Below, piece by piece: positions 42,236 through 63,766 of a DNA stretch of 64,000 nucleotides. Within the stretch, counting starts at the first letter, position 1; every line of letters begins with the position of its first letter. The DNA comes from Phoronis australis (lineage: Eukaryota; Animalia; Phoronida): assembly GCA_002633005.1 (NCBI GenBank), contig NMRA01000100.1, forward strand, positions 945,787-1,009,786, written 5' to 3'. The notes beneath the pieces are model-generated. The model did not search any database, was not told the DNA's origin, and was given only the letters and a program-made list of their open reading frames with translations. The position numbers and the translations under genes were made by a program.

Positions 42236-42892
42236 ACACTCAACATTGCTTGTGTGTGGTCTTGAACTGAAGTCCCTAAGAACTACCACAGATGGAGAGC
42301 CACAAGCTGAACTGTCTGCTTCAAGTAAACGATAGCTGAGCTAATAGCTCACATCGAGACATAAAAATTCAATTGAATAATCTGACTATAAATTAATTCA
42401 GTTGTTCTGGCGTCTCAACTATGATTGACTATACGGCTCAACTCGTAGCTCTCCATCTGCAATGTCTCTAAGCCAAGCGATCATAGGCCTTGAAAGTAAT
42501 GAAATGTTGGTGATTGTGCATTATGAAAACACTTGGTCCACTCTTGAGATAAAGCTCCAAAAGAAAGGCAAAGCAGTGCTTTTATTGTCAGAATCGGATG
42601 TGATGAGGTAATTACATTTTCTCAACATAAGTGATACAATGCCAGTGGACCAAACTCTGAATATAATATTTCAAAGCATGGAAAGTTGCAATTACAATAC
42701 TGTCGTAGACTCAGAGGTAATTTAGTTAAGCTACAGAATTCAGTTCAAATACTCAACTCTACACAATGAAAACACCTTACATGAACTAAAAAAATGTAAT
42801 TATGCTTCACATTGCGAACAATTTGTCCCGTCAGCATGCCATCTTTTTGGTCACATCGCGTGACCTAATGAATATAAGTCTGATAAGATTTC

Positions 42893-42945
42893 TGTCCCCG
42901 ACCGGGACTTGAACTCGGGACCTTCTAACCGAGCAGATACTTCAC
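42893..42945 (-). mobile_element. tRNA-derived SINE-like fragment
   Basis: On -: ggtcccgagttcaagtcccggtcggggaca (B-box/T-arm); no convincing 5' half. Confidence 0.45.
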
Positions 42946-43328
42946 ATTACTGGTATATTGTCAAGAACGACATCTAAAATTCTGCACACACACACATTTT
43001 TCAAATTTACTCGTAGCCAGTACAAATTTGTAATTTTACTTGAAGTACTGGGTATACCAAGCAATTTCAAGTCAAGTGCCAAGTTCATGGATTAGGGCAA
43101 GTCACTCGAAGAACCAGTTTCTCTACTGAATAACGAGCATCAAACTGATTCTCAAAGTTTGGGACTGTTGCACTCATGAGATGCCAGAGTACTCGGATCT
43201 CTATGATGCATTGTAAATCATCCTGGAAAGATATGTAAAATCTATGATGTTTCAAGACTCATTGACTTGGTGGACCATTGTGAACAATGATTCAAATAAA
43301 AGCAAAACAAATTGCACAACGTGCCACT

Positions 43329-43499
43329 TTAATAATTTCCATAAGAGTAATACTGGTCGCGGTAGGCATCACTGCACAGGCGTGACTGAGATAAGTTTTT
43401 CTTTGCGACGCCCCCCATAAACAATTCAAACGTTGCAGACTTCTTGGCATGGATGATGGCGGTTGCCGCATCTCGCTCGGCTACACTGTTTCGGCAGTG
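43329..43499 (-). CDS. cpras1: cpRAS gene probable last coding exon ([10 protein letters not shown]...[10 protein letters not shown])
   Basis: tttacag acceptor, phase 0, TAA stop; AATAAA on the minus strand at 42581-42586. Confidence 0.75.
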   Translation of the reverse strand, partial: HCRNSVAERDAATAIIHAKKSATFELFMGGVAKKNLSQSRLCSDAYRDQYYSYGNY

Positions 43500-46400
43500 C
43501 TGTAAATAAATATTTACAAAATATATAACATGTAGTGATTTAGCAGAACCACCATGGAACTGCATAGCCGCATGGAAATTCATTTACAACATATCCGAGG
43601 TCAAAGGTTACAGGGCTGTCACTCAAATCGAATCTCCCACCAGTCACAGAGAGTCTTCATATGCGCCCTCAGTCTTTTCATTCACTGAGTGCTCACAATA
43701 TTGAAACGAGGTATGCATATGATAGAAAGCTGCTGAGGGAATTGTGTATCTGCATGCATGCAACCGTTGAGAATGAATGCTCCGAGTTGCCTTTGTTCAA
43801 GAACACAGGAAGTTGTGAAATCCTCACAAAATTCTTTACTTTGATAGGTAATTTGACATTTTGCTGTTAACCGGTTCCTCTGAAAATTTAAACTTTTCTC
43901 TTTTGGTCCAAAGTCACGATTTTATAGGCAGATTTTGATAAATAATGAAACAAGTAACATCAATACCGCTTAAGTTTAAGAATATCTGTGCAAGCTTTAA
44001 AAGCGTCATCTCCTACTCGAGCCTAAAATTAAGCACAAGGTTAGTGTAAGTATCATAAACCCCGCTTGAATTTAAGCATANGCTCCGAGTTGCCTTTGTT
44101 CAAGAACACAGGAAGTTGTGAAATCCTCACAAAATTCTTTACTTTGATAGGTAATTTGACATTTTGCTGTTTCGATCTCATGCTCACGACGTGCTTTAAC
44201 CAGTGACTCGATTTCTGTAATCCATTTTATACTTGGTTTCATATCAGTCTCCCAGCATGAGGTGTGTATAACAATGCACTGTTGACCTACTTTTAAGTAG
44301 GTCAACAATTCATCGCCTATCAGACTGGAGATGGTAACAAAATTAATGTTTTAGCGATAATTATTAAGTTAATAATGCACTGCAAATTCAGTTGACATCA
44401 GAGTGAATGTTGAAATAGCGAACATAGTTAAAGCACGTTATGGTTATATTGACCGAAAACAAGCTTTCACCGAATAATTAACTGAAGACATTGAAAATTT
44501 CACGTGTCCCAACTTAATCAGCTTTTTCTCGACTTGGGCAAATTGACTTAATTTGAACTCTGGAACACAAGATCTCAAAAACGGTTCAGTGGATTTCACT
44601 GATAAAACTTTCCAAACTTGATTGTCTCAAAACGCTGTTAGCATTTTCAATATAAAGGCCAAGTTCTTGTGCAATGTAACAAAGATGAATACAACTGCTA
44701 TTTTTACAAAAATATCTTATGTTTTGTGAGTTGATTAGCCCTAGAAACCAAACTAAGAGATTAATAAAAAAATCCTAACAGCACTTTTGAGGTAACTGGT
44801 GAAGTTTTCATTTAAAAAGGTTTCATTAAAATCGACCGAGGCGTTATTAAAAATGGAATTTGGACTTAAAAAAGCGTTACTGTAATCTTACAATAGCACA
44901 TGAATATAAAATATACTTATAATCCCTGACCTTTTTTCTTTCAGAAAATATAACGTTTACTATATTTGACAAAGCCTGTTTTTGATAGAGTTAGAATGGA
45001 GTCCCCTAAATAAGGTTTGAGATAACCTTAACACTGTTCCGTGTTCAACCTCTGTATCATAGTTATCAATAGACAACATATAAAAAATTGAGGACATTTG
45101 CAACAATGTTAGAAGCCTTGAAAACTAGTAAAAAAGAGCAATTTTCATACTTATCTTTGTCCATTATTGGTAAGATTTTATTTTATGCACACAATTCTCA
45201 TCTCATTTCCTGTGACCACCTTATTGAAGTGTCTCAGCCAAAAACGTGATTTGAAAAATGATGTTAAGTGAAAGAACCAAATTCTTCATTTTCTTCACAC
45301 ATACTGACCTAGTTTTTACTTATAAGAGTCACATTTGGAAATGAAGACAGTCAAAGGTTTCATTAGCTGAAGCCGAAAGAGACAACAGAGGCGGTTTTAT
45401 GGGACTGATCCTGTTTAATTCCAAATTTCTTAAATTTGGAAATGTGAATTTTTGTGTAGGTCATTTGAACAGAACATAAGATTATTTTATAATCCAGGAA
45501 TGATTTATAAAAACTGTGAAGGTAGAACAAATTTCTTTGAAAACCTTTGCGTGACAAAACTGCAAGCAAAGCTACCATATGTTGGAACTCTTTTTCTGTC
45601 AGGATTAACCCAGCACCACGAATGAGTTCTTCCTCAACTCAGAAATTACTTTTAACTTGAGCAAGGAAGATATCAAGACCAATTGTACTACAGTGAGTGG
45701 TCTAAATCAAAATGCCCGTACCTTTTAGTTGGAAGAAGTCAGGTTCATAGCAGAGGCATTGTGCCCTGATTAGCAGGCTAAAAACAAAAATCAAAAAGGG
45801 CCCTTCACTAACAACATCAGTCTCATAACATTCCTTACTGCGATAGGGTTCTACTTTCACTACCAATTGCAAGTCACAGGCAGTGAACCGTTTTCAAATG
45901 GGTAATTTTAGGATTGGCCAACCCCAATAACCTCTGAAGCGTTTTCTTGAGTCATTGATGGTTTCGACATTCTTCATTGGTAACGGAAACAGAATATTGC
46001 CATGGTAAAGAATATTGCAAGACTGTTTTTACGAGAGCAAAAGACCAAATTTAACTTCTGTTTTTGACAGCAAAATAGAGAAAAATGCAGCCTTAAAATA
46101 TGAACTCAAGTAGTCAATCCTTGCAAAAAATGAAAATTTATTGTAAATTCTATATAAAGCCCAAATCACATAGACATCGTGAAGGCCCTCAACCACATAA
46201 TCCATGGATTAGCATAGTCGCGATCGAGTGCCATAGATACCAAACAACTTACTGAGGACTCCATGTCGGCCAACTGTCGATCAAACTCTTCGCACTCTAA
46301 GGCATAACTGAAGTTCTCCTCCAACTGACGAGAGTTTAGTGCCACCAAGCGATGTACTGCTCGTCTAAAATGTGAGAACAGAATTCCTGTTACCTTTCAG

Positions 46401-49400
46401 TATCACATGAATCTTCAGTAAAACTCGCATAAGTCGGACATGCATCAGTCAGATTTTCACAGCCTATGACAGCGAACAGCCTTGCCAAACTCTCTAACAT
46501 CACTGGCAAAATCAAATTCAGAATTGAGCCTCAAACTAGAAAGGTTTTCTAATAAATCAATTTGAAAAAATCCAAGAGTCCCACTACTTACAGATGACCT
46601 CTGGCCTCCTCATATCTGCCCTGTTCCGCTGCCTTAGCAGACATCTGCATCGCTGCTGTGCCAAGCACTGCTACGTTTGTAGTCTGAAAAGTAAAAATCA
46701 CGTGAAGTGTGCCTTGAATAACCTTGGACCCAAAATGTGATTTTTATCACTAAGCTGTAACCTTACATGTTCATCTAATGCCCAGTACAGAGTTTAATGT
46801 GATAAGCTAACAAATCGAGGAAGGACTTCAAATCAAACACAACGAAACAAGTGAAATTATTGTTATTTATTGTACGCTTGAGCTGAGCACCAACATTAGC
46901 TCTTACAGTATTTTTAAAAGACAAAAAAATTTTAAAGAGCACCGTTTTTCACAAACTTGCTTCATTTTCATGGATACAAATTTGCTAACAATCAACAATT
47001 AATGTATTTCAGACTCGGCACTTTCTGACACATAAATCTCAAGCAGAACAGAAAAAAATCTTTACCTGCTCCATTTTGTGTCTGTCTTCGGTCATTTTTC
47101 TTCGATAACTAAGAACACGGAGGAGCTTTGCACCATCTTTTCTTCGATACGTTATTTGTGCCTGAAAGAAAAAGGGCCGTTATGACACATGCGCACATGC
47201 AATTCTCTGCACAAACTATCAGACTCTTTGTGTTAAACTAACATGCGTTCTAACACGTCAACAAACAGAAATGTTTTTGGAAATGCTTTCAAACCAAATT
47301 GATTCAGCGGTCATAACTGGTTGCAAAACCTGTGTGGCCAATCTCTTCGCAAGACAAGAAAGTGTGTCATGACAGCTTTGGTGTTGCTGAAATTTTGTAC
47401 CAAAACAAAATTAAATGTGTACACAGAAGCTAAAGTTTCAATTACCTCTACAAAATATAACGACAGCTGATGTTGCTACACCTATGAAGATGGTGTTTAG
47501 GGGTTGCAAAACTCACCAGGTCATGATTCTTACCAACAACAGGAAGATAGTTCATAGCATAATTGGGGTATCATTCAGGGTTGCACACAAAACCAGTCAG
47601 ATTAAGAGGATCACTGAATTGAGCCATTGTGTTCACATTAGGAAATTTGTACCTTCCTTCTATGATCAAACGCCAACGCTGGTGAAATTCCACCAGGCCA
47701 AGGTCAGCCATGCAACCAAACAAAATGTGGGGATAAAGACATCAACGGGAAACAAATATTAAGTGTATAGTGACAGAATAAATACTACAAAATTTCTGGT
47801 CACAAGAGTTTGAGGGAAACCGAAAGGCACAACATCTATGTCGTGAATATGTCGTTAACAAAATTACCTCATCACAACCAGTTTCATCCATTTTCTTTCA
47901 AGCACAGCTTCTGTTGTAAGTTAGTGACATGTATAATTAGCTGGTAACTACTTTCCAATGAACAGCGCAAGGGTTTGGGTTTTTTTGACAAAATCACTAT
48001 AACTTGACCAATTTTGAAATTCAAAAACCCACGTAGTCTACTTTTCATACCCCTTTATTTATATTTTTTGGTTTCCATCAGTTTTTATGTCCCAAAAAGA
48101 AAATAGAAAATACAACCTGGATGCTCTCAAACCTTCTGTTCATACAGTCACTCTAATGATAACCCACCTGAAGAGGAAAGTCGTCATCCTTAAAGTCATG
48201 TTTGCTCACACCAAATGAGAAGGCGTGATCAGAGTCTTTAGTTACATTCCCAATCTCTTTTGCCAGCACACTGCCACACTGTAATAAAGACAACAATAAT
48301 TACACTGCTACCATGCTACACATATATCATACTATTGGCAAAAAACCCTCAGATAGGTGGTACTATAAACAGTACATAAGGTATTTGGATAGACTGGTAA
48401 CAAAGAATATTTTTTAAAAAGCTCTTTAAGGCTATAAAATTGCATGTCTTTAAAAACCTTTATGGTCACAGAATGTTATGTGCACAAAAATAATGCCCAG
48501 GTATTCATAATCATGTGATTTCATTTTGTCTAAAAATTCTTAATTTTTCATGGATATGAACACTAACATGAATTTCTTTGAACGAAACTTACAAATTCTG
48601 TTTCTTTATGTTATTAGCTACAAAAGGTGCTATAGATTTGCTTTAAATTCACTATCTTGGACCTTGTTAATCGAATCTAACTTCATGGTTACCAATAACT
48701 TATGTTTGTTCAAAGATGAAGATGTGACTAATAAAATTTCATCTACGACCATGCCCACCACACAGCTCACTCACCAGTTGACCATCGTTGTTTTTCCACT
48801 CCAATGACTTCTGAAGGTGAAGTGTCACTTGTACATCTGTTGCCACGACATTGTTCTGACCAATCAAGCGTATCTGGCGTATGAGTTCGCCTGGGTGAAG
48901 CACGTTGGCAGTGCCGTTTGTCACCGATGCTGCCGTGCCAATAGTCTGCAGCTCACATCCACCAAGACCCAGAATGGAAACTTTCGTCTGGTTTGACTTT
49001 GCAATGTTGCCAATCTAAAAGACCATATGCATAACCCATGCAGTAGATTCTATATCGATTACGATGGTCTGAACAAGAACAATTACTGATGACATCTGAA
49101 AGATCATCTGGTGATGTGCGCATCATAAAGCGTACCTCACTTGAGTTTTAAATAACTACCAAAATGTCAACTAATCATTTTGAAGAGTTATTCTGGTCGA
49201 ACAACAACACAGTTTTTATAAAGATCACTTGTAGTTCTCAAAATCTCATCCTGTTCTGGATTCACATTAGAAAAGGGTTATGGCCTTGATAAGTTATCTT
49301 AGCCAATCAGTTTCACTTCCCAAAGCAGCGTAAGGAGAATTTCAGGCATTTTATTTTTAGTAATCAGTTTTAATCCAAATAAAAGATAAGAATGCGATGA

Positions 49401-52400
49401 CTTTGTAGAGCTAACATGCCTGAGAAAAAATTGTATTTGACAACAGGGGTCATAACCATCAAACTTTTAATTAACAATAGGGCGGTTCTGGATTACCCAG
49501 TGATAGAACTCGACCTTTGTTCTGGAGATAACAAAGCACGTGACCTCGTTTTGGAAATCAGGCACATTTTTGTGTCTCTCATTGACATAGGGAGGGCGAA
49601 GAATTACACATCACACATATGCGAGTATTTATCCAGTTTATCTAACTTGCTCACATCCAAGTTGTAGCAGCAATACTTTGCTGGCATTGGAAGGATGAAT
49701 AGAGTAAAGCAACTGAGAAAAAAATCAAACAAATAACATGTGAAACTCCAATGGCACGAAAACAAGGCAACAAATGAGCCTGGCGGATGTTTATGGCAAT
49801 GTAGTTAAATACAGTGAGATTTAAGTGTCGCTGTATAATCCGGGATGGTCCTATTGCCTGAAATTTTAAAGTTTATTCAAGACATGCAATGTCGTTTGTT
49901 ACAGTGACTATAAACCAGTTTTCTGTCCAAGAAGCGAACTTTTGATTTAGGTCACTTCCTGCTAAAAAAATTGTCTCCACTTGTTTCTTACACAGATGAA
50001 AAGTGATTTGTTAGTTTGCAAACAACTGACAGTTTGATGTATTGGGACTATTCTCAGAGCACGCCGTCATGAGTCAACTTGTAAAGCCTGGGCTTTGTTT
50101 TATGAAAGTTTAAGTCTCAAAAGTCTGATTGTTGACATGATGACAACCATGGGCAAAAGCAACATTCAAAAAGCACGACATGTGATGGAATGATAGCATT
50201 GTTTTTTCGGTTTAAATTAAGACTAAATTCTTTCATGAAATGGAGCCCTGCATGGTCAACAACGAACTGCCATTTCTTTCAAAGTCCAGAAATCACCTCT
50301 AATTTGACTAAAAACAAATTGAGACGAATTTCATAATGGTAAGCAGTCTAAATGCAAACTTTGTGTTTGCGATGGGAAGTTTTATTACCTTTCTATAGAA
50401 GGGTGGACCTGCTTGTATTTGGCCCACACCAGCATTGGCCATTCCGTCGGTACACAGAATGATCTCAGAGCCTGGCGTCTGTGACAGTAATCCAACACCA
50501 AGGGTCAATGCAGGTCCCAGTGCCGTGGCGGAAGTAGGCGTAAGGGCAAGAACTTTGACCTTTAGTGATCTTCAACAGGAAATACAGACATTAAAAAATC
50601 CAAATTTGAATAATATTTCCAATGTACGGCTTATGGTTAGTTGACAAATTATAAAGAATTGAAATGCTATAACTACAAACACTATTAAGAAAAATTACTC
50701 CATACTGCAAATTAAAATCAATAGTCAACAGTTTTCAAGATGTAATCTCCCAACAAAAAATTTTAAAAAACAACAGATACAGGGAAAGCAGTTAATTTAT
50801 AAAACACAATGTTAATTTAGACAATGGCACCGTATAACAATTGTAGTTACTCACTCAAGCGACTTGCTAATTGGGCTGATTGTGAAACTGTTGGACCAGT
50901 CTACTCCCTCCGCCAATAGTTCACTAATGTTGTTCTGATTGGCCTCGGACCGTCTCATTTCTGGCATAACTCCATCCCCAATCAAACTGATGTCACTTGC
51001 AAATGTGATCATGGCAACTCTTTTATCTGGTTCTTCCAAAGCGAGTTTATCCAACTGCCTGAAAAATTTAATTTCATAAAATGCATTTAATTGAAAAGTA
51101 CGTTTAAGAAAATGACTCACAAAATGTTATTATTACAATTACGACAAGAGCAACGCGGAGCTTTGAAATGTGCCATGGAGTGCTTCTAGGGTTGTTTGTT
51201 TCATAAAAATAGCCGCCAGAAGGCGAAAAAACGTCCAATCCATCTGAAAATGAGTACATGCCATCGCTTCATTAATAGAAAGCTATTTACCAAATTTCAC
51301 AAAGTCATCTTCAGAATGGTTTGGTTGGGGTAGATGCCAAAAAACAAGACTCAAAAACAGGAAAAATGGCCACTAGGTGGCGCAAAAGTTCCTCGATTCC
51401 ATCCAAAAGCGGGAGGATAGCATCATCTCACCAATAAATGCCTGTATTCCAAACTTTCTGATAATCCGTTGAGGACATTTAAAGATACAGAGGTAAGCCA
51501 TGAAAATTGCCAATAGGGGGCACACTGGTAGTCAGATCCGTCCGAAAGTTGTTGTCATCCGTTGTTAACGTCATATAAATACACTAGCTAAATTTAGCAA
51601 AGATGCTGCAAACGGTTTAGGAGATACAGCCATGGGCACAAAAAAAAACAAAACTGCCACTAGGAGGTGCCACAGTAGTCAAAGTCATTGGTATATCATT
51701 ATAAGCTTCCTAGTAAAAACACACATGCCAATTTCCACAATCATCTTTAGAGAGGTTTGGTTGATAGAGGGGTGGACGCCAAAAAACAGACTCGAAAATA
51801 GCAAAAATGGCCACTAGGTGGTGCAAACTACGTCGAATCTGTCCGAAAACAGGAGGATAGTGTCATCTCACTAATAGGTGCCTATATTTCAAATTTTATG
51901 AAAACACATTGAGGACCATTGAATATACAGAGGCAAGCGTAAAAAGCATAAATTGCCACTAGGGGGCACACTGGTAGTCAGACCCATCGGAAAGTCATCG
52001 TCATTCATTGTCAACATCATATAAATACACTTGCAGAATCTTCTAGTAAAGATCCTGCCAATGGTTTACGAGATACAGCCATATGCGCAAAAAGAGACAA
52101 AACTGCCACTAGGAGGCGCCACAGTAGTCAAAATCATCGAAAAATCATCGTCAGCTGTCCTCTTCATAATAAAAACATACATGCCAATTTCCATAATCAT
52201 CCTTAAAGCGGTTTGGTTGATAGAAGGGTGGACGCCAAAAAAACACTCGAAAACAGCATAAATGGCCACTACGTGGCTCAAACTACGTCGAATCCGTCTG
52301 AAAACAGAAGGATAGCGTCATCTTACTGATAGATGCCTATATGATAAATTCTATGAAAATACGTTAAGGACCTTTGAATATATCGAGGTAAGCGTAAAAA

Positions 52401-55400
52401 ACTAAAATTGCCATTAGGGGGCACAGTCGTAGTCGGCTCCATCCGAAAGTTCGCTCATGCCGTCCCATTCATGATGGGAACATATGTGCAAAATTTCATG
52501 AACGTACGTCAAAGGGTTTTGGAGATAGAGCAGCGGATGCTGGACGCCGTACGTCGGAGGCGGACGGACAAACGCCGGACAGACGCCGGAAAGACGCCGG
52601 CCGGACGGACGGACGGAGATGACGGCATAATGTGTCCGCATATAAATATGTGGGCGCATATAAATATGTGGGCGCATAATAAAAACATGCATCTCAGTAA
52701 AAAGTTATGCAGCAGTGACGTCATCTTCTGTTAGCATTTCAGTGACAATTCTTCACCTGTTGGCAGTGAGGTGAACTCAACAAATATACAGATTAATAAA
52801 ATGTTGATTTATTATTAGCTTAACACAAACTGTATAGATGTCATGAAATGGCATTTGATAAAGTTTTCTTTCAGTACGGTAATTAGTTTGACAAATAAAA
52901 ATGCAATTACTTAGTGGAATTACCATGCAGTGAAGTTTCTTGAGCCCATAAAAGACAAAATGATAGAAAAACAACAATAGTGAGTGAGCAAAGTCCACAG
53001 TTGCGTAGAAGATTGAGGAAACATAATGGACCTATTTGGCAATCGGCCACTCAGGTTTAATTTTTCTTTGTCACAAAAGTCAGAATCAATCTCATTGAGG
53101 AAAAAGTGCTTCCACTGAGAACTCCCAATAAACTATGGCCTAAGACTCCTGGGAAAAATAATTCGCCAAGAAAGGAATTGAATCCACAATCTCAAGACTG
53201 ATTTTTACCAAGTGCTTCAAACACAAGGCCACTGACCAATGACAAATTCAAAAGCAACATGATCATCTGTCATTACCTGACATGCAACAATGCTTGCATT
53301 ATGCACTCAATGCATGTAAACATTACATCACCACTATACTTACCTTGTTATTGCCGTTTTCATACAGTCTAGACGCGACATGTTCTGACCACTGACGTCA
53401 CCACCAGATTTAAGTGCTCTCCATTCAGCTGTAACAACATTTTGATAAAGATGATAAAATCTCATTAAAATTATATTTTTTGATAATGCTTATGAAAGTT
53501 TGTCAGATATCTTGCCTGACTTTTACCCTCCGTCAGAGCGAAGGCGGTAGAGACTGTTCTCTATTTATCATTTTCACAAGTATCTGACCATGCCATAACA
53601 GAAAACTTAGGTTTCATCAGCAAACAACAATGGTTTCTAAATTGAGGCTCTTCCAGGTATCAAACCATGCAGTCAATTGTTAAGTGTTCCCATACACTTG
53701 TGTACGGCATCACAACTCGCACGCTAATTATCTACCACGGTTCAAAGAATTACCAGCTACAATTATTCATCTACGGGAATCTGAGAACTAAAACCTAATG
53801 TATTAATTTTGGCTAATTCTTCTTGTACTTTTTCGTGCAAAACTGAACCTAATTCAGCTTTTTACGAGAAATTCAATTTCAAGAGCCAAACAGGTTGAAA
53901 TACCATAAGTTTTAGCCTACAATCAATTACTTTTAACCAGTGTTTTAGTTATGAAGCCATCGCTAATGCGGTAATTGCTCTGCTCTACACAATAGAACCT
54001 TAGATCAAATTCCTTCGATAAACACCTGGTTTCTTGACAACAGTGACATCTATTGACAAAGAACAAGGTGGTCTGAAACGAGCAGAGTTTTAGCACTTTT
54101 CAAAACTGGCCCTCCCTGGAAAAGGTACAGAAGCGATGTTTTTAAGGGGAATACAAAAGGTAAGAAAGTCTATCTTATGTTTTGCTTATGTGCCAAATGT
54201 TAGCACAGTAGCTACATAAGCTATTGTAAAATTGCCTGGATGTTCCTATCAAAGAACCATGGAAATAGTTAAACCCCATGCTTTTAACATTTGTTACAAA
54301 GTAATAACAAACTAAAGAGCAAAATTTAGTTTTTTAGCATCATTATGCTCACGATATGAAAAACATATGTTAGCACCAAGCCTCGGTCCCCCTCCCTCCC
54401 AAAGCAAAACCTTATTACAGTGGTTCGTGAAAATGGTGAGAAGTGCGATGAACAGTTTCCTAGTCCATCAGCTCTATCCACCATTTATGAACGATCAGGG
54501 GAGCAGTTGTTCAGTGGTTTATATAATCAAATGAACAGGCCACGGCAATTAAAGGGCAGATAACACCAGCTACTATACTTGACACAGCTGACTGCACCTA
54601 CTCCCAAAAGCACTGGTTAGGATTAAAACTTTGATACTTTGAAAGACACCAATACCTAGAAGGGCTGGCATTTGGCAATTTGAACTCATGGACCCACTGA
54701 CGTCAACACAGTAGATTAATACACCAGAGGATTTCCCCCTCTCATCTCTAGCGTCATCTGTTGGTGGTGGAGTCAGCATATAATCCACTTGGTGCTCACT
54801 TGGCACTTGAGCTGCATCATCCAACTCTAGGTTGGCGCTGGCGTCACCACAGAATTCACTGTAAGAACACAATATTATACAATATATGGCATTATTTTAT
54901 CAATATAGAACCACTACACTATTGACCTTTGTTATAGATAACGAAAACTGATGCAAGCGCACCCCAGAGTGTAGATTTTTATGATAAGAGTCATCCAATC
55001 AAGAATACAGAAAATGTCAAGCACAAAATCATTTGCATGGTAAGCTAGCACTTGATTTTGAATAAAAGTTACTTGTTAACATGCATTTACATCTTTGATA
55101 AACTGAACTTCTAACTGCTATTAAAGTAAAGTGATTTCAACAGATCATTTATCAATGTCTATTAGCAGGGCTGCTTTGAATGACAGCTATCCCACAATCC
55201 TTTGTGTATATGAAGTCACGTGCTTTCACTAAAAAAAGTCAATCCCTCATCTACCTACCATCAGTTAGTGATGTGATGGAATTAGCAATCTCAGACAAGA
55301 TCTATTGATACAGTAGCTGACCTATTTAGCACACAATAATTGAAATTTCATTGCCAAATTTCTCAACAAAAATGACTAATAGAAAATTTTAGTCTTTAGT

Positions 55401-58400
55401 TGTACTGCATTTGGTGAAATTAACGTTATATTTATAGTAAAGTAACGAGCATCAGAAAAACAGAAATGACAATTTTGCAATTATTTTTGGGCAAAGCAAG
55501 TGAAGGATTGTACTTTTGTAATAACCAAAGACCATCATGACCTAGCTGACAGTCATATATAACAAAAGGCTAGCAGTGAATCGATGGCCATAGGTCTATC
55601 ACTTGGCTGCCAATGTTGTGACAACCCACAGAAGTATCACAGTGTAACATTAGTAGGTCTATGGTATCATAAATAGAGGGAGAGGCTCTGATCACAATTG
55701 CCAGTCATGACAATATTGACCAATATTGACCAATATTGACTTTGTTGGTCATACCCGAAGGCTGGGCAGGGATCTCTTCCCCCCGCAAATTTGCTTACTC
55801 CGGGGTTTTGTCAGGTTTAAATAAAGGAGAATGCAGTTCCTTCAAAAACTACTGCACAACAAACAGCACCACTGACCATTCCCACTGTACTGAATCCTTG
55901 TCTCTATTCAGTTTAGACACCGATGACAGTATCGCTTTGCACCCGCGACAAAAGATGGGGTCACCAGTCATAACGGTGACCTCGTCTGCAAGTGTGCCCA
56001 GACGTAACAGCACAATGTTGGAATCACTTTTCGAGCATTTGAAACTCTTTTGCTTTGAAGGCGGGTTTGAGCCTGTCTTTCCTTGACTTGTGTCACAAGT
56101 TGGAGCATTTCTTCGTCTGAATAAGTCTAAGAAACTTTTTCGCTTTGGGGACTTCTTGGGGCTTTTCTGCTTTGATCTAAAACCAGCTGCAAATAAAAAC
56201 ATAAAGACATTTTGATGGTAATTCTTCATTTATTTAACAATTGCTTGGACGGAGGCTACAGGAAAGTTTATAATGTCAAATTTCTAATCAATAATGAACG
56301 TTACCAAGCTTGTACATCATTATGAGTCAAATTTGTACTGAATAGCAGGTCATACAACATTTACAAATATTGGATTTTCACAACACATTGGTCGGCTAAT
56401 GAAAAATCCAAAATGACAATTTTGGTAACTATATTTTTGGGCAAATTAACTGAAGAATAACCGGCATTCTTAAAGAGTGGTAATAGCAATATGTAGTATT
56501 TTTAACTCTCCAAGTCACTTATGGTCCGTAAACTGTACAATTAATAACACTTGCATGATGCTTTACGTACACTACAACCCTGTTCACACCAAAGCGGTTA
56601 TGATGTTTAAAAAACCCATTTAATGGCTTTAATTCAAGACCTGAACATTTTAAACCCGGTTTTAATTGTAATGGCGTTGCTCGGTTATAACCCTTTGTGA
56701 TGGTGGTCTAGCGAGAGGTTATAACAATTGTAACTCGGTGTGAACATGAAAGTTGCAGTAGATGGCACTGCTGTCAAATCTAGTTGGAAACAAGCGGGCA
56801 CACTGAGGCACTAACTAGAGTGAATGAGACCACTAGCGTCTGTACTAGGGTTACAACAGCTGAATATGTCAAGGTCCTGTGCCTGTAAATGAGAAGGAAA
56901 TGTAGCTTAGCACAGATAGACACACTGACATTATTTTATAGTTTACCCTGTTTAGAGCAAAGTTGTTTGAGTCCTGCAATTTTTGTAGCTTTCCTGAACG
57001 AATCTTCTATGGTTGGGTCGTACTGGTCCACAAACATGTCACACACAAATCTGAGAGTCAGAGACGACTTCCCAACACCTCCACTGCCAACCATGACCAC
57101 CTGTCAAATTAATGAGGCAAACATTGCAACATCTCAAACAGATAGCTTTACCTCACTTACATAAAAGATGCAGAAAGTTTGTGATAAGATGGTTGTAACT
57201 TTGTAAAACAGTTACTAGTTTCCTCTCCAACTTTGATCACTCCTCTGAGATTGGTACTAGGTAAAATATTTTGTTCTATGTCATTATATAAAGGTTGACA
57301 AGTACTATTAACAAAATATTTAATTTTTTCAATTAAAAAAGCATTTTGGTCAGATTTCAACATAAACTGTCTTGAGTATTGTACATTACAGTTGGTGGCA
57401 GGACAGGAATTTCCATTTAGGCCCAATACTATTACCTTTTTATGATTACTTCAATAACACGCGTGTATTTGGATCAATACAGATCAATGCGGGCTTACAT
57501 ACCAAAACAGGTTAATGTGTTTAAACCTGAGAAATACTTGAGTGAAAGTGAGGAGCAAATTTTGTAAAATATGTCTTAGTGAAATTTGATTTATCAAGCA
57601 AACAGTGGTAGGCACTGAAATGCGTTCAATTTAAATGGATAAAAACTGCATTTCGCCCCGTTTAGGTGTCATTTCAGACATTTTTGAAGTTATTAATGGA
57701 AGAACTAAACCAGCAGCTGACCTGTAATGTATTCACAGACATTGTTGTATCACAAAACTGGTCTATTTTTAATGGAATTCCCTGCGCACCATTTTTAATT
57801 TCAGTATTGGCCAAACCTAATTAAATCAATGATTTTTTAACTCGTTTTGTGACCTGTTCAGGGTTGTATAATTGTTGCTCTTGGTAACAGAATACAAGCG
57901 CTATCATAGAAAGCAAATTTTGAGACAGGATAGAGTAAAAGGTTGAATTCAATTTTCATTTTAGCCAGCTAAACAAGGTGTAATGCAGCATTAAATTAAA
58001 ATGATAAAAACTGGACAAAACAGCCATTTTAAGACATGCACAAGAGATAGATGCATATATCCACAAGTGAAGTTAAGGTGCAAGCGCCTATGTATGAAAC
58101 ACTCAAGCAAAAATTTTCTGTAAAAAATCCTTATTTCAAATATAGCCAGGATTGAATATATGCATATAAAGCAACACAATGCCCTATTTCGCAGAACTAT
58201 CATTTGTTGATAGGTGAATAGTTACTTCAAATCACCTTGACAGGTGCAAGTGTTGCACTAAAGACTGTGCATAGGAGTCCGGACATAACATGCCCACATT
58301 TTGAGAAACTGATGCCTGTTATTCAGTGAAGAAAACTGGTTCTCAAAATGCGGGCACACTATATCCGACTTTGGGTACACAAGGTGCTGCGTTTTGTGGT

Positions 58401-60830
58401 GAGTGTCAAGACTTCATCACCCCATGTCATTGTTCTGCTCTTTGGAAAGTGTTCCACAACATGTGGTAAGCCAGGTTTTGTTACAAGCATATCTTATTCT
58501 TTCCCCTTACCTTGTATCCAACACTCGTTCTTGGTGCTAATCTGACCACGGCATGGAAGGCTTCCGTCACATTGTGGTTCGTTTTAGCAGAAGTGCGGAA
58601 AACAGGTTTCTTGCACTGTTTAGAAAATCGCTTCTCGTCCTCCTCCGACACCTGATAGGTGACAGGGTCAAGGTCACACTTATTGGCGCAAAATACCTGA
58701 TAAAGTAAAATTATAACTGAATAAACCGTTCAGTAGATATACTTCGAGGCCTGTTTAATAGTTTATATATTAGAAAAACTCACATACGGTAGTCCAATAC
58801 AACCACAGTATGGCACAAATCTCATTTAACTGAATAAAGGCCGAGTGCACGAATCAGAACAACTGTGAATGCTGAACTTAGTCTAACTTTTAGCCCCCGG
58901 GGGAAAATCAAACTAATATGCACATCTGATTGTCGCAGCTTTTATTGTAATAACAGTATAAGACTGGAGCCCATGGGCGGTGCAGCACTGAAAAAAGTGA
59001 GGGGCTATAGCCCCCCAGCCCCCCATGGTGCGCCGCCCATGCAAAAGCAAGATAAGAGAGTACCATAAATGAATCCCGGCAAACTATAATCACAACGTGA
59101 GGATTTGCACCCATAGCCTCTCTTTCATAAGCCCAGACTTACCAGTGGTACATCATCAACCCCTTTCAATTTTTTGATAAATGTGAGTAAATGTTGCGCT
59201 TCTGTAAATGACTGTCTCTGTGTGATGTCATAGACAACAAGGAAGCAGTCTCCGTCTCTCATATACTGTTCCCTTAAGACAGAGTACTCTTCTTGTCCAG
59301 CTGTGTCCAGAATGTCTAGTAAACAAGTCTGTAATAACACAAGAGAGATCAGTTATGGGGTCAGTACCAGCTCTACATCTTTGGGAATCAGAAGTTTGAT
59401 CAATGACTCTGGGGACCCCTCAAGCATATTGCATTGTCATCATGATGTGCACCCCATCCGATGGTCCCGCCCAGTCTAGGCTCTAGTCACCTTTCCAGAA
59501 CCACCAATGCCCATTCCAAAACAGCTCAGTAATGCCCGACCTGAACTCAATACCATCATATTACGAAGTACCAAGATGGGCTCCTTCATTCAGTTTCATC
59601 CTGTACATGAATAGTTTCACTCAGAATGGAACTTCAGAGTGGGGCTCCCCCACTCCCAGTAAGATGGGTCTGAAGCTTAAGCTTACTTGCCTATCTGCCA
59701 CTGGTACTAATTAAAGCTAATTTGCAACGTGATTCTTCAGTGTTTTTACTTAAACTTGGCACTCAGTCAAAGTCTCAGTACCAGCTCTACATCTTTGGGA
59801 ATCAGAAGTTTGATCAATGAGCATTGGGGACCCCTGAAGTTGCATGTTGTCATCATGATGTGCACCCCATCCCGCCCAGTCTAGGCTCTAGTCACCTTTC
59901 CAGAACCACCAATGCCCATTCCAAAACAGCTCAGTAATGCACGACGTGAACTCAATACCATCATATTATGAAGTACCAAGATGGGCTCCTTCATTCAGTT
60001 TCATGGTACGTGGAAAATAGTTTCACTCAGAATGGGAACTTCAGAGTGGGGCTCCCCACTCCCAGTAAGATGGGTCTGAAGCTTAAGCTTACATACCTAT
60101 CTGCCACTGGTACTAAAGCTAGTTTGCAAAGTGATTCTTCAGTGTTTTTACTTAAACTTGGCACTCAAAGTCTCGAATTTTCACTCGCGTTTGCCTATTA
60201 CTGATACTCAGCCGGGCTGTAGCGGCTCGATCAAATTTAGCTGCCAGGTAATTTGTAGGCCTAAGTGTGAAGTTGGACTAGAAACTTATCTTGGTGCGCA
60301 TACACTGTAACATGTAGTACAGCCCAGTCTAATTAGACACGTAACCCGTTCACTCAACAGTAAATTACAGTTTCACTGAGTTTACCACTTTTACCTTTTA
60401 CTTTAGCGCAGGCTCACAATTCATAGACAGCTCCACCTAGTGGATGAATAATTAAACCGATTGCGCATGAGACCAAGGCAAGAACAGTACTGGGGACGCG
60501 ATCAGAAGCTGAGGACGGCTGCGGTCTCATGCAGGGTCTTTGATGAGACACTTTTGAGCGAGTTCGCGTTAAATTCAGTTAAGCAACTCCATAAGTTACA
60601 AAAGAAGGATTATTGAATATTTTTCCAGCTAATTTTCATCTTATAATGGCATTGAGCATTATCAGCACAGTATCAAAAGCAATGCTCAATATTGTTTTTA
60701 AAAATACCTCTTCATCCATACCACCAACATTCATATTTCCAAAATTCTCTTCTAACAACTCCTCCGAAATGTCCTCGACGTCGTCATCAGTTGTATGCCC
60801 GATCCATAGGAATTCCCCTCCAAATTCCAT
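43329..60830 (-). CDS. cpras1: Circularly permuted Ras protein 1-like (cpRAS GTPase G3-G4-G5-G1-G2 + C4 zinc finger + VWA domain), 14 coding exons, about 817 aa
   Basis: Exons in transcript order, all GT-AG and phase-consistent: 60830-60708, 59328-59143, 58696-58511, 57100-56947, 56186-55877, 54858-54656, 53428-53344, 51058-50855, 50569-50389, 49014-48775, 48278-48168, 47161-47066, 46683-46592, 46364-46253, 43499-43329 (the list gives 15 segments including the less certain first exon). Motifs in order: [37 protein letters not shown]...[24 protein letters not shown]. Confidence 0.9.
46253..46364 (-). CDS. cpras1: cpRAS gene exon ([10 protein letters not shown]...ADMESS)
   Basis: 112 nt, ttttag/gtaagt. 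Confidence 0.8.
46592..46683 (-). CDS. cpras1: cpRAS gene exon ([28 protein letters not shown])
   Basis: 92 nt, tttcag/gtaagt. Confidence 0.85.
47066..47161 (-). CDS. cpras1: cpRAS gene exon ([18 protein letters not shown]...MEQ)
   Basis: 96 nt, phase 0/0. Confidence 0.85.
48168..48278 (-). CDS. cpras1: cpRAS gene exon ([16 protein letters not shown]...FPLQ)
   Basis: 111 nt, phase 0/0. Confidence 0.85.
48775..49014 (-). CDS. cpras1: cpRAS gene exon ([17 protein letters not shown]...[12 protein letters not shown])
   Basis: 240 nt, ttttag/gtgagt. Confidence 0.88.
50389..50569 (-). CDS. cpras1: cpRAS gene VWA exon (TALGPAL...[14 protein letters not shown])
   Basis: 181 nt, MIDAS Thr and Asp motifs. 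Confidence 0.9.
50855..51058 (-). CDS. cpras1: cpRAS gene VWA exon ([21 protein letters not shown]...)
   Basis: 204 nt, tttcag/gtgagt. Confidence 0.88.
51144..52685 (-). mobile_element. Apparently full-length Helentron-associated (HINE/DINE-1-like) element with central tandem array
   Basis: On -: T-run start, subterminal hairpin (52630-52680), (CCGT)n microsatellite (52555-52620), about 150-bp monomers grouped in 440-455-bp higher-order units, terminal ...GCTCTTGT. Family assignment rests on structure only. Confidence 0.75.
53344..53428 (-). CDS. cpras1: cpRAS gene VWA exon (AEWRAL...[12 protein letters not shown])
   Basis: 85 nt, ttacag/gtaagt, phases fit. Confidence 0.85.
54656..54858 (-). 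CDS. cpras1: cpRAS gene exon: CEFC and start of VWA ([10 protein letters not shown])
   Basis: 203 nt, MIDAS DxSxS motif. Confidence 0.9.
55877..56186 (-). CDS. cpras1: cpRAS gene exon: basic linker and first half of zinc finger ([15 protein letters not shown])
   Basis: 310 nt, ttgcag/gtcagt. Confidence 0.88.
56581..56746. mobile_element. Small MITE-like element
   Basis: Inverted ends tgttcacacc / ggtgtgaaca. Confidence 0.4.
56947..57100 (-). CDS. cpras1: cpRAS exon with G1 and G2 ([37 protein letters not shown])
   Basis: 154 nt, tgacag/gtaaac. Confidence 0.95.
58511..58696 (-). CDS. cpras1: cpRAS exon with G4 and G5 (VFCANKCDL...[15 protein letters not shown]...GYK)
   Basis: 186 nt, tatcag/gtaagg. 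Confidence 0.93.
58972..59041. mobile_element. 70-bp MITE-like element
   Basis: Inverted ends catgggcggtgca / tgcgccgcccatg. Confidence 0.5.
59143..59328 (-). CDS. cpras1: cpRAS exon with G3 ([24 protein letters not shown]...DVPL)
   Basis: 186 nt, ttacag/gtaagt; close to Ras switch II region. Confidence 0.95.
59361..60166. repeat. Tandem duplication of about 400 bp in the first cpRAS intron
   Basis: 59361-59765 and 59775-60166 are near-identical with several indels; no N at the junction. Confidence 0.85.
60708..60830 (-). CDS. cpras1: cpRAS gene, probable first coding exon ([12 protein letters not shown]...GMDEE)
   Basis: ATG in aaaaATGG context, acidic 41 aa, phase-0 donor GAG|gtattt compatible with the next exon. 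Confidence 0.7.
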
Positions 60831-61131
60831 TTTTGCAACTGGTCACGCAGTACAGTAAGCAAATCCGGCTTTTCGTACTCGGTAGTCTTGGGAGAGATTG
60901 GTTCATATAGAATCAAATCAATTTGCAAACGATCGTTGTTGCCTTTAGTTTATATTTACGAGATCCCTGTTCTAAAAATAACCTCACTGTGAACAGCACA
61001 CTCCCATGTCTAAAAATAGAAACAGGAAAGCCTTGGTTTTGTATAACAGCGCACTCTTTCGGTGAATGGAACAACTATCTACCTAACTCCGGCGCTGGAG
61101 CAGTTCGAGAGCCACTGAACTGGGATGCTCG

Positions 61132-61212
61132 CACGGGCAGATCCAGGATTTTGAGTTAGGTGGGGGGNGACACGGCCCCCTTGCATGGCCCGCCCCTCTA
61201 AATCCGCCACTG
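61132..61212. mobile_element. Short MITE of the same family (contains an N)
   Basis: cacgggcagatccaggattttgagtt...ctctaaatccgccactg; flanks gctcg/actcg. Confidence 0.65.
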
Positions 61213-63766
61213 ACTCGATCAAAGTAGGACGATGAATCGATCAATGTTTCCTGTACAAGAGGTTGCTTCCTGTGTTTTGATTTTGCATTTGGCAGACAAT
61301 ATAAGTTCCGGAATAATAGGCAATTAGTCATTTTTAGTTTCATGGATAATGACTTGCTTTTGCCGGGACCTAGGACCAATATCTCCTGACGGTCTGTGGA
61401 AGGGGAACCCGAAGTTCGCCGCCGGCGGCTCCCGACAAGTAAGTAGATTTTTAGTTTCGTGGATACTTCGTAATTACGAGCACATTATTTCTTTGGCTCA
61501 CTATTATAGTCTTTTCGTGACTGGAGGTTTAGTTTCGAACTGAAGCTGGCATGTTCGTGCCAGTCGATCCCAGCGGCCGCGACGGGCCTGATCTGGTTCC
61601 GAGCCACTGGCTGGGATAACGAGTCAGTCCGGCCGCGACGGGCCCGGCTGATCAGGGTTCCGAGCCAGACTAGTGGCCGGGATAACAAGCGTTTTGTGTG
61701 TTTAGATCACTAAAAAAATGACAAGTCTAAACAACAAAGATTTAGGTTCTCCTGTCTGTATTTCACGGTAGAATACTTCGAATTTATCTCTGAACAGATC
61801 CCTAACTCCTGCTACGGACCTTAGTAAATTGGCCTGCTCAACTTTGTAGTCTAGTGTTCAAACTCAGATACCAATAAATCCGTAACAGCGAAATAAAACA
61901 ACACGTTTTTATAAGAACTCGGTGTATTTTTAAGGGTTTTACATCGAAGTTTGATGATTTATTGGTGTTAAACGATGAATTCAAGCGATAAGCTGACACC
62001 AGTAACCCGTGTTGTCAGTCACTGCTGAACACACTGCGTGTGAAACCAATTACGTCATTGGATAATTTCAACACCTCCGTCTGCCGTCAGGTGTCAGGTA
62101 ACGCAACCGAACGTGCCGTTATCGAGTACTACTCGATCTAAATTGATACAAAATAGGTTGTTTTTCGGGTGCCATTGTCCTTTAACAAGACTATTCACAA
62201 AGGCCGCTGCGTTTATAGCGTCATGGACCGTGGCGACACTTAGCGGGCGTGTATGCGCCAACGAAGTACAAGAGGCGTTGAGTAGTACGGCCGATTTCAG
62301 TTTGTCAAATTCAAAATTGTGAAGTGTCTTTGCTTAAAATATTGAAAACAAAAAAAATATGAGCAGTGCCATGGAAAATACACATAGGCAAAATCTAGAC
62401 TCGGTATATCAAGAAAAAACTTTGGCAGTAAAGGTAATAAAGTTACGAGAAATACATCATAAGCTAGTGTGACTCAGAGAGGTAGACAGGTGAAAATAGG
62501 TGATTGGAGGGTGAGCAGGTACAGAACATGTTTAATTTTGTCCAAGGAGGTCAGGGAAGTAAAAAACATAAGACAGACCTGCTGAAGAAGAGGTAGGAGC
62601 AAAAAAAAAAACAGGGNCTTTCTTTCCCCAATATTCCAGGTGTTAATATCAATTAATAAACACTCAATTATTAAAAATTCAATGCACAAACTTTGTTTTA
62701 AAGTATAACTGAAAAATTAACAGACTCTCATCCCCCCAACCATCATATGTTTCCAGATCTTCACTCTCACACGGTAGCACAGGCAAAGCGGCAGAGAGGC
62801 AGAAAGAGGCAAGATAAACACATCAAATTAACTTTTTGGTCATTTTATAATATTCAAAATGTACCGAGTTAAAACTACTCTACACAGTTGCAGGCTGTAT
62901 CTCTCATTGTGCAAATGCCAGAGAAAACCAATTTGGATGTAATAACAACCATCATTGTTGAAACAGTGCTAGCTCAGAACTACATCAATACAAACGGGGA
63001 CCTGAATAGGCATCATAAAAATTATCTGGGGCTGAGGGAATCTAAGTGGTGACCAGTGTAAGGCGTGAAATTCTCCACATGCACTTCAGCACCAATACAT
63101 CTTTTTTGTCCAACAATACGAAAAAGGATGAACTGAAATTTACATTATCTTTTTACTTCAGTTTGTTCAATTTTATAACTTTTGTAATCATCCATACCTG
63201 TAGTAGATTAGTTTGTCATAATATATATGACGTTTATCTCACCCTCACGTGTTTTGTCCTTAAGATCAGAAAACTTTTTTGACTTCTAATAAAAATCCGC
63301 ATGCGGACATAAAACAGGAGTATACGAAACACGCTGCTCAGAAAAGTAACTTTCTCACGGCCAGTTTCCCTTCGGGTGCCTTTGTGACAAAATTGCCAAT
63401 GCAAGGGTGTCCAAGTTTCTTACATTATTCCTTACAGAAACTAGGAGATAGAAACTCTATAAAAAACCTATTCCAGCTGCAGAATTTTACAGGTTTCAAA
63501 AAAGTCTAAACTTTTGTTGCAAAAGTTGACAGCATAGAACCTCTTTTTGTGCTGTTTCCGGAGGTAAAAACTTCATCTGGAAAAATCCCTGCGATAGGAT
63601 TTATGGAATTAACACACTACAAAAAGGGTGATGTCATCTGGAAATAACATTTGATGGAAATTCCCTACTTTTTCCTGTCCACTTTATAGACGGATGGCAT
63701 CCTAATTTCCAGCTGTACCCGTTCACCCCGTCAATGAAAATATGCGAGTAACACTGAGAGCAAAGT

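Follow-up and report, generated by a model that had tools for sequence, protein, structure and literature searches.

Circularly permuted Ras (CPRas, cpRAS) proteins carry a Ras GTPase domain whose sequence motifs are rotated, and at NCBI the family goes by the name 'circularly permutated Ras protein 1-like'. The system closest to the locus treated here is the CPRas1-type, or cpRAS-VWA, family of Elias & Novotny 2008 (PMC2430557), with the motif order G3-G4-G5-G1-G2, a TIE G2 motif, a short N-terminal region, a linker, a four-cysteine zinc finger and a VWA/Sec23 trunk. The accessible text of that paper gives a length of 840-970 residues, treats the N-terminus as unrecognisable and makes no mention of beta-barrel or helical domains; a 2026 paper (PMC13393502), in its accessible part, lists CPRas only as a possible gene of the last eukaryotic common ancestor. 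Here we present a CPRas gene of the phoronid Phoronis australis (GCA_002633005.1, contig NMRA01000100.1), located on the minus strand at positions 60830-43329 of a stretch of 64,000 nucleotides (64 kb; hereafter the window). The gene is intact, its rotated Ras domain is likely an active GTPase as judged from its residues, and this domain lies in a loop of what is predicted to be a Sec23/24-like core.

Canonical Ras proteins (HRAS, KRAS), the best PDB sequence matches of the family profile, have the same nucleotide-binding and switch residues as CPRas, which differs in being rotated, in lacking the hypervariable tail and the CaaX end, and in being embedded in a large protein. The YRG (YawG/YlqF) GTPases likewise link alpha5 to beta1, and a model of the permuted domain aligns with them over 120-146 residues; however, their order is G4-G5-G1-G2-G3 with the cut after beta3, identity is 13-20% and the flanking domains are unrelated, whereas in Phoronis G3 comes first. 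In Sec23 and Sec24 a zinc finger is likewise followed by trunk, beta-barrel and helical domains, with the same predicted fold (in the model of a relative), at about 15% identity; CPRas, in contrast, lacks the gelsolin domain and an Arg722-type finger and has a complete MIDAS (an adhesion site that depends on a metal ion). The GTPase of Sec23 is the separate Sar1, that of CPRas a Ras inside the chain. According to the accessible parts of the sources, the Asgard and other prokaryotic Sec23-like proteins (PMC11914678), ArnB and the Catenulispora VWA protein (PMC12852372, which describes ArnB in these terms; PDB 8s05, 4fx5) possess the same gelsolin-less core, and the prokaryotic Sec23-like proteins are without the inserted GTPase and without the CPRas tail; the loci scanned below are likened to the proteins of PMC11914678 by kind.

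The gene comprises 15 exons, whose joined frame of 2454 nt encodes 817 residues, contains no N and has a single, terminal stop, against 38 and 51 stops in the remaining two frames; all 14 introns are GT-AG. A family profile compared with the window matched all 15 exons in colinear order (E 2.5e-35 to 0.4, the weakest being exon 1 with 0.4 and exon 14 with 0.14), and the joined model scored 883 bits, the whole 817 residues being accounted for. The exons are as follows.

Exon 1, 60708..60830, minus strand: residues 1-41; start codon, host N-terminal strand, acidic loop
Exon 2, 59143..59328, minus strand: residues 42-103; Ras beta3, G3/switch II, alpha2, beta4 and alpha3; Pfam Ras
Exon 3, 58511..58696, minus strand: residues 104-165; G4, G5, alpha5, short new connection to beta1; Pfam Ras
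Exon 4, 56947..57100, minus strand: residues 166-217; G1 P-loop, F28, G2/switch I and beta2; Pfam Ras
Exon 5, 55877..56186, minus strand: residues 217-320; basic linker of low conservation, second strand of the host (N273), C296 and C299
Exon 6, 54656..54858, minus strand: residues 320-388; zinc C320 and C323, start of VWA, MIDAS D372-x-S374-x-S376
Exon 7, 53344..53428, minus strand: residues 388-416; VWA insert with W390, first VWA helix
Exon 8, 50855..51058, minus strand: residues 416-484; VWA trunk; one RNA contig across 50945-51057
Exon 9, 50389..50569, minus strand: residues 484-544; MIDAS T499 and D525
Exon 10, 48775..49014, minus strand: residues 545-624; end of trunk with the helix E587/R590/R593/Q597 (specific to the Ras clade), start of beta-barrel
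Exon 11, 48168..48278, minus strand: residues 625-661; beta-barrel
Exon 12, 47066..47161, minus strand: residues 662-693; last beta-barrel strands
Exon 13, 46592..46683, minus strand: residues 694-724; helical domain
Exon 14, 46253..46364, minus strand: residues 724-761; helical domain with Q737/E739/E740
Exon 15, 43329..43499, minus strand: residues 762-817 and stop; D771, tail K794/R801/Y811 of Ras-bearing members; no gelsolin domain, no CaaX

An initial interpretation of the letters and open reading frames, the sequence-only reading, had reported a G3-G4-G5-G1-G2 Ras domain here, with the equivalents of G12, G13, K16, F28, T35 and Q61 retained, followed by a zinc finger and a VWA domain with complete MIDAS. 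All of this stands. The G3 Asp is at 59307, Q61 at 59295, the G4 Asn at 58684, the G5 Ser at 58591, the G1 Gly at 57088 and T35 at 57013; the zinc CxxC pairs (C296, C299, C320 and C323) are at 55950 and 55878/54858, a codon of the latter being split by an intron, and the MIDAS residues are D372 at 54704, T499 at 50526 and D525 at 50448. A Pfam search, which the same reading had suggested, matched Ras profile positions 46-110 on exon 2 (E 6.5e-19), 107-159 on exon 3 (E 7.9e-8) and 2-45 on exon 4 (E 2.9e-11), so that the 162-position profile is used once, in rotated order; in the homologues the search matched zf-Sec23_Sec24 and Sec23_trunk as well. A search of the 64 kb window with three ordinary Ras proteins and the Ras profile found no second Ras piece.

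Conservation was counted against 27 full-length homologues, in Ras numbering. Invariant in all 27 are the Ras-equivalent residues G10, G12, G15, K16, S17, F28, 32-39, 57-64, N116, K117, D119, S145 and A146; G13 is kept in 24, and the zinc cysteines and the MIDAS residues in 26-27. The Phoronis protein keeps all of these, its departures being Y40F and D69E, and its G5 and G1 are spaced by 31 residues, as is usual in the homologues, a few of which have 32-35. The rotated domain is predicted to close into a Ras fold. Structure prediction for the permuted domain of the homologue P0006 alone gave a predicted local distance difference test (pLDDT) value of 90 and a predicted template modelling (pTM) score of 0.84, with beta2 re-formed; residues 1-119 of the model align with M-Ras (Z 14.4, root-mean-square deviation (rmsd) 1.5, 117 aligned) and residues 13-165 in one pass with the YRG-type YlqF (Z 10.4, rmsd 3.3, 136 aligned).

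By its motif order, its TIE G2 motif, its Pfam matches and the published description, the Phoronis gene is a new member of the CPRas1-type cpRAS-VWA family and distinct from YRG, as had been proposed. From end to end it is 40% identical to its best full-length matches (P0023, Owenia P0082 and Dysidea P0358). In trees calculated without the Ras part (192 rows; 44 rows), a step likewise suggested at the outset, the Phoronis protein falls among the animal cpRAS-VWA members (four-row clade, support 98), which are separate from the Ras-less paralogues. Its 817 residues are just under the range given in 2008 and inside the 800-978 of the 27 homologues; 41 residues precede beta3 (about 40-66 in the CPRas1-type N-terminal region), the poorly conserved linker after cpRAS measures about 60 residues, and apart from a long branch and Y40F there is no difference of kind. 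Permuted members occur in many molluscs, echinoderms, sponges, amphioxus, a hemichordate, a brachiopod and nemerteans. The CPRas2-type, in which cpRAS lies within a very large COG2373/A2M protein, was considered and rejected, all 817 residues being covered by the cpRAS-VWA profile. In the products clustered with P0006, from Dysidea avara, annotated cpRAS-only forms of 187 and 232 residues occur beside forms of 842 residues and are either stand-alone or split models.

The host part is predicted to be a four-domain Sec23/24 core (zinc finger, trunk, beta-barrel, helical) without the gelsolin domain. Regarding the 29 homologues searched with Pfam at E<=0.05, 22 matched zf-Sec23_Sec24, 27 Sec23_trunk and 21 Sec23_BS; Gelsolin and Sec23_helical were not among the matches listed (25 of 33 families). 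A profile of 47 Ras-less relatives had Sec24A as its best PDB sequence match (E 1e-10). The whole-chain fold was taken from an AlphaFold model of the Owenia homologue P0082, about 40% identical to the Phoronis protein. Over all 803 residues the mean pLDDT is 84.6 and the pTM 0.85; residues 1-10 reach a pLDDT of 95, beta2 is re-formed, the switch regions have values of 66-79, most of the linker at 218-249 after beta2 is below 50, and past residue 672 there is nothing but helices. Foldseek placed Sec24 and Sec23 at the top of its matches (E about 1e-25), and residues 1-777 align with Sec23A 17-617 (VIA-align Z 26.1, rmsd 5.2, 479 aligned); the Catenulispora VWA protein and ArnB come next (Z about 22). 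Beyond the residue that pairs with Sec23A 617 the chain continues for just 26 residues, in a region that is entirely helical; the gelsolin domain is therefore missing, and with it the built-in GTPase-activating protein (GAP) function of the Sec23 type. In the accessible text of PMC11914678 that domain supplies the catalytic residue of Sec23, and Sar1 is bound via the trunk, helical and gelsolin domains; the residue is Arg722 according to the accessible text of PMC5889017. A complex prediction of the P0082 Ras domain (42-214) with the core (250-803), GTP and Mg scored 0.01 in two runs, which speaks neither for nor against a contact.

The Ras domain is inserted in an N-terminal loop of the host and is not an N-terminal fusion, the first ten or so residues belonging to the host fold. 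Residue 1 of P0082 aligns with Sec23A residue 17, and the N-terminal motif of exon 1, common to the Ras-less relatives, marks this exon as the family's own N-terminus; a simple pattern for the motif occurs in 73 of the 119 permuted relatives and in 53 of the 128 Ras-less ones, many of the others being fragments. The first zinc cysteine follows Met1 by 36-48 residues in each of the 15 prokaryotic homologues that were examined; the median is 150 for 70 Ras-less eukaryotic proteins and 315 for 81 permuted ones, and the Phoronis value is 296. The sequence-only reading had spoken of a Ras fused to a Sec23/24-like zinc finger and VWA domain: the likeness was borne out, the end-fusion was not, and the extent of the host had been understated. 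It had also called the family rare and patchily distributed; the family is a known one, but it is less rare than so described, with 119 members carrying the rotated Ras among the 265 relatives with the core that were fetched.

The remaining relatives comprise 128 with no GTPase, 12 partial ones and 6 with a GTPase of normal order in the loop. Two of these six are Ras (P0158 of Mastigamoeba and P0252); four, with one of the partial class, are Rab-like (P0221, P0296, P0216, P0285 and P0300; the named ones are amoebozoan), and the member tested matched Rab1A best. Rab1 acts in traffic between the endoplasmic reticulum (ER) and the Golgi. The Rab-like members form a single clade (support 100) that groups with Ras-less hosts (89), whereas P0158 and P0252 are nested in the permuted clade (99; 44-row tree of the non-Ras part). 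Since the two kinds of filling thus lie in separate clades, the loop gained a GTPase on two or more occasions, provided that the prokaryotic root is correct. For the unpermuted Ras pair, reversal or replacement of the permutation appears the likelier course from these trees. An unpermuted Ras as ancestral state is disfavoured by the position of the pair inside the permuted clade, although forcing the 22 permuted rows together was rejected only marginally in the approximately unbiased (AU) test (p 0.044), with a subset picked after the first tree had been seen. A tree of the Ras domain (62 rows, 4 skipped) was too weak to place the unpermuted domains.

When 70 Ras-bearing and 52 Ras-less hosts were compared, several host residues tracked with the Ras domain: E587 (100 vs 13%), R590 (93 vs 0%), R593 (99 vs 0%), Q597 (87 vs 0%) and K794 (93 vs 29%), besides W390 and E519. 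The C-terminal tail with K794, R801 and Y811 is a feature of the Ras-bearing members, R801 being an Arg in 66 of the 85 and a Lys in another 10 (rows used: 86 of 111). The helix from E587 to Q597 ends the trunk, presumably at the place where Sec23 carries F382. D771 (P0082 D758) corresponds to Sec23A 598 by a gap-free back-count from the end of the structural alignment. The adjoining E599 of Sec23A is a Sar1 contact in the accessible text of PMC11883524. A basic linker as a Ras-specific substitute for CaaX was considered: a net charge of at least +5 was present in 95 of 108 Ras-bearing against 18 of 73 Ras-less proteins at first count, but on equal 50-residue stretches the figures were 69 of 109 against 48 of 72, the specificity was gone and the candidate was rejected. 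An amphipathic linker helix, also set aside, exceeded shuffled sequences in 34 of the 108 Ras-bearing proteins and in 17 of the 73 Ras-less ones, and not in Phoronis (p 0.35).

A scan of genome contigs yielded 19 prokaryotic Sec23-like loci, many of them Asgard; the scan patterns were derived from the CPRas family, so that selection favours likeness to it, and they required the MIDAS, so that its presence in these loci is circular evidence. The 17 full loci scored 128-239 bits on the Ras-less family profile, the other two (L001, L019) being fragments. Two Asgard proteins scored 104 and 97 bits against the Phoronis protein and 13 and 21 against Sec24; a third scored 50. These scores suggest that the prokaryotic Sec23-like proteins are closer to the CPRas host than to Sec24, a picture that faster change of Sec23/24 could also give. 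A conserved GTPase neighbour was considered and rejected: only one of the 19 loci, several of which have short flanks, has a small GTPase in its flanks. In that sole case (L005:4070-8243) an archaeal Sec23-like gene is followed by a roadblock protein and then by a small GTPase scoring as Arf/Ras. The fragment L001:3902-5422, from a bacterial bin, scored 432 bits on the eukaryotic Ras-less profile, far above the other loci, and is possibly a eukaryotic contig.

The reading that we prefer, and to which we give slightly less than an even chance, is a switch in one chain, in which the GTP state of the rotated Ras would be read by the Sec23/24-like core. The rotation would open Ras between beta2 and beta3, and a cut at this place would tie both switch regions to the host chain: the first host strand would run straight into beta3 and switch II, and switch I and beta2 would exit into the host. 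Upon GTP loading, the switches would dock on a surface formed by E587/R590/R593/Q597, E739/E740 and the K794/R801 tail, probably near where Sec23 meets Sar1, and docking would alter the binding of a membrane or of a MIDAS ligand by the scaffold. Since the core lacks the gelsolin domain, it would serve as an effector rather than as a GAP of the Sec23 type.

Several points weigh against such a switch. Positions 32-39 of switch I, invariant in all 27 homologues, are the same as in ordinary Ras and would fit outside partners too. The Ras-bearing and Ras-less hosts are two clades and thus a single contrast, in which residue tracking is confounded with descent, and D771 is kept in Ras-less hosts as well (11 of 11). 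The linker after beta2 is long, variable and of low confidence, and coupling from that side may therefore be loose. Most Sec23-family Pfam scores are below the curated cut-offs, the folds come from relatives and not from the spliced Phoronis protein, and the joint from G5 to G1 (58511/57100) is not among the 15 of 181 RNA joints listed. Asgard Sec23-like proteins co-precipitated with an Asgard Arf only weakly and irrespective of nucleotide, according to the accessible part of PMC11914678, and no biochemistry of the CPRas family was found in the open literature (subscription journals apart).

Somewhat unlikely, though next in order, is that the Sec23/24-like core merely carries an active Ras in place of a lipid anchor, the Ras having outside effectors, guanine nucleotide exchange factors and GAPs. 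A switch I and a G3 that are invariant and like those of ordinary Ras, the flexible linker and the lack of a CaaX end in all 28 sequences compared (the Phoronis protein included) would suit such a tethered GTPase, and the unpermuted Ras or Rab1-like domains in the same loop indicate that rotation is not needed for fusion. The whole-chain pTM of P0082, however, suggests a fixed arrangement of the domains in that model, and the host residues and C-terminal tail described above are kept in Ras-bearing members only.

We consider it unlikely that the core acts as a GAP in cis, with an arginine finger (R590, R593 or R801) replacing that of the gelsolin domain and making the protein a self-timing GTPase. 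The absence of R590 and R593 from the Ras-less hosts compared, the prevalence of Arg or Lys at R801 and the invariance of Q61 and G12 accord with this, as does the position of P0082 residue 788 (= R801), the last aligned residue, which falls on yeast Sec23 703, past the helical domain (several alignments; range ends). But the domain that carries Arg722 in Sec23 is absent, R801 is not invariant, and two trunk arginines on one helix may equally form an interface. In a broader and equally doubtful proposal, CPRas would be a one-chain counterpart of Sar1-Sec23, with a gelsolin-less scaffold of Asgard type that lives on in eukaryotes as a separate family, whose loop took up a GTPase repeatedly (rotated Ras, unpermuted Ras, Rab1-like) and which holds it on the face that in Sec23 holds Sar1; the tail arginine would then perhaps act as the finger.

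It is very improbable that the rotated Ras binds nucleotide yet does not switch, being kept in a single state as a rigid element of the scaffold: although the accessible text of the 2008 paper cites an argument that breaking the beta2-beta3 turn should impair Ras folding (PMC2430557), and the pLDDT of the switch regions is lower in the full model, none of the catalytic and switch residues varies among the 27 homologues, which range from amoebae to animals, and beta2 is re-formed in both models. Two tandem Ras genes (named in the sequence-only reading as what would refute it) or a mis-assembly in place of one transcript can be virtually dismissed and the former was rejected, since, for all that the 58511-57100 joint is missing from the listed RNA joints and the window holds just 3.2 kb upstream of the start codon, each Ras piece is single-copy across the 64 kb, the joints are in frame and GT-AG, and transcript-derived and annotated homologues have the same motif order and the same spacing from G5 to G1, with exon 1 the family's own N-terminus.

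RNA data were taken from four runs chosen by species label only and viewed over 42400-61900. The joint 48278/48775 of exons 10 and 11 was read in all four (10, 9 and 4 reads and one contig), the raw reads all being first-mate on the plus strand, as expected for minus-strand RNA in a stranded library, and the joint 47160/48167 of exons 11 and 12 was supported by one contig. Depth was low (<1 in the bin of exon 4), and intronic repeats dominate the table of joints. The exon order proposed at the outset is thus confirmed by transcripts at these two joints, and the joint from G5 to G1, absent from the joints listed, rests on splice signals, frame and homologues. An exonic variant at 47089 in two runs alters codon 686 at its first base; the residue encoded is a Glu of low conservation.

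Introns of the gene contain several repeats: a near-identical tandem duplication of about 405 bases in intron 1 (59349-60167), reaching just short of the exon 2 acceptor; short elements, palindromic or repeated, in the introns on either side of exon 3 (58310-58350 and about 59000), which draw many partial RNA reads; a repeat with a period of about 450 bases in intron 7 (51300-52620), abundant in RNA reads of other loci and likely a dispersed element; and two identical 90-base copies 303 apart in intron 14 (43779-44171), which have an N at their edge (44081) and were possibly duplicated in the assembly. Directly upstream of the start codon, 61001-62500 has a CpG observed/expected ratio of 0.9-1.2, compared with about 0.2-0.6 beyond, and is likely the promoter region. 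An alpha-actinin-like gene (window 3597-41440, plus strand; two CH domains, spectrin repeats, EF hands and a Ca-insensitive EF hand) is arranged tail to tail with the cpRAS gene and ends about 1.9 kb from its stop.

On function, insertion, Rab1-bearing members or a link to Asgard, the literature found (subscription journals apart) consists of just the 2008 paper and passing mentions, and no paper treating CPRas together with Sec23, Asgard and Thorarchaeota was found in the open literature. Neither there nor in the accessible 2008 text did we find the reading of the host as four domains, the insertion, the variants with an unpermuted or Rab1-like GTPase or the likeness to Asgard proteins.

The Phoronis gene is one further animal member of a family that was described in 2008 and is auto-annotated in many invertebrate genomes; it is of value because that family is still without a known function. 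The guess at this function is now narrowed to a GTPase set inside a near-complete Sec23/24 core, with specific residues that can be mutated, and the relatives whose loop contains an unpermuted Ras, a Rab1-like GTPase or no GTPase are natural controls. If the GTPase does sit at the Sar1 site, this placement would bear on the first coupling of vesicle coats to small GTPases and on the stability of a permutation that had been argued to prevent folding. CPRas would then offer a living model of a GTPase-coat module from before COPII and would indicate a lost step of membrane trafficking that many invertebrates and protists retain.

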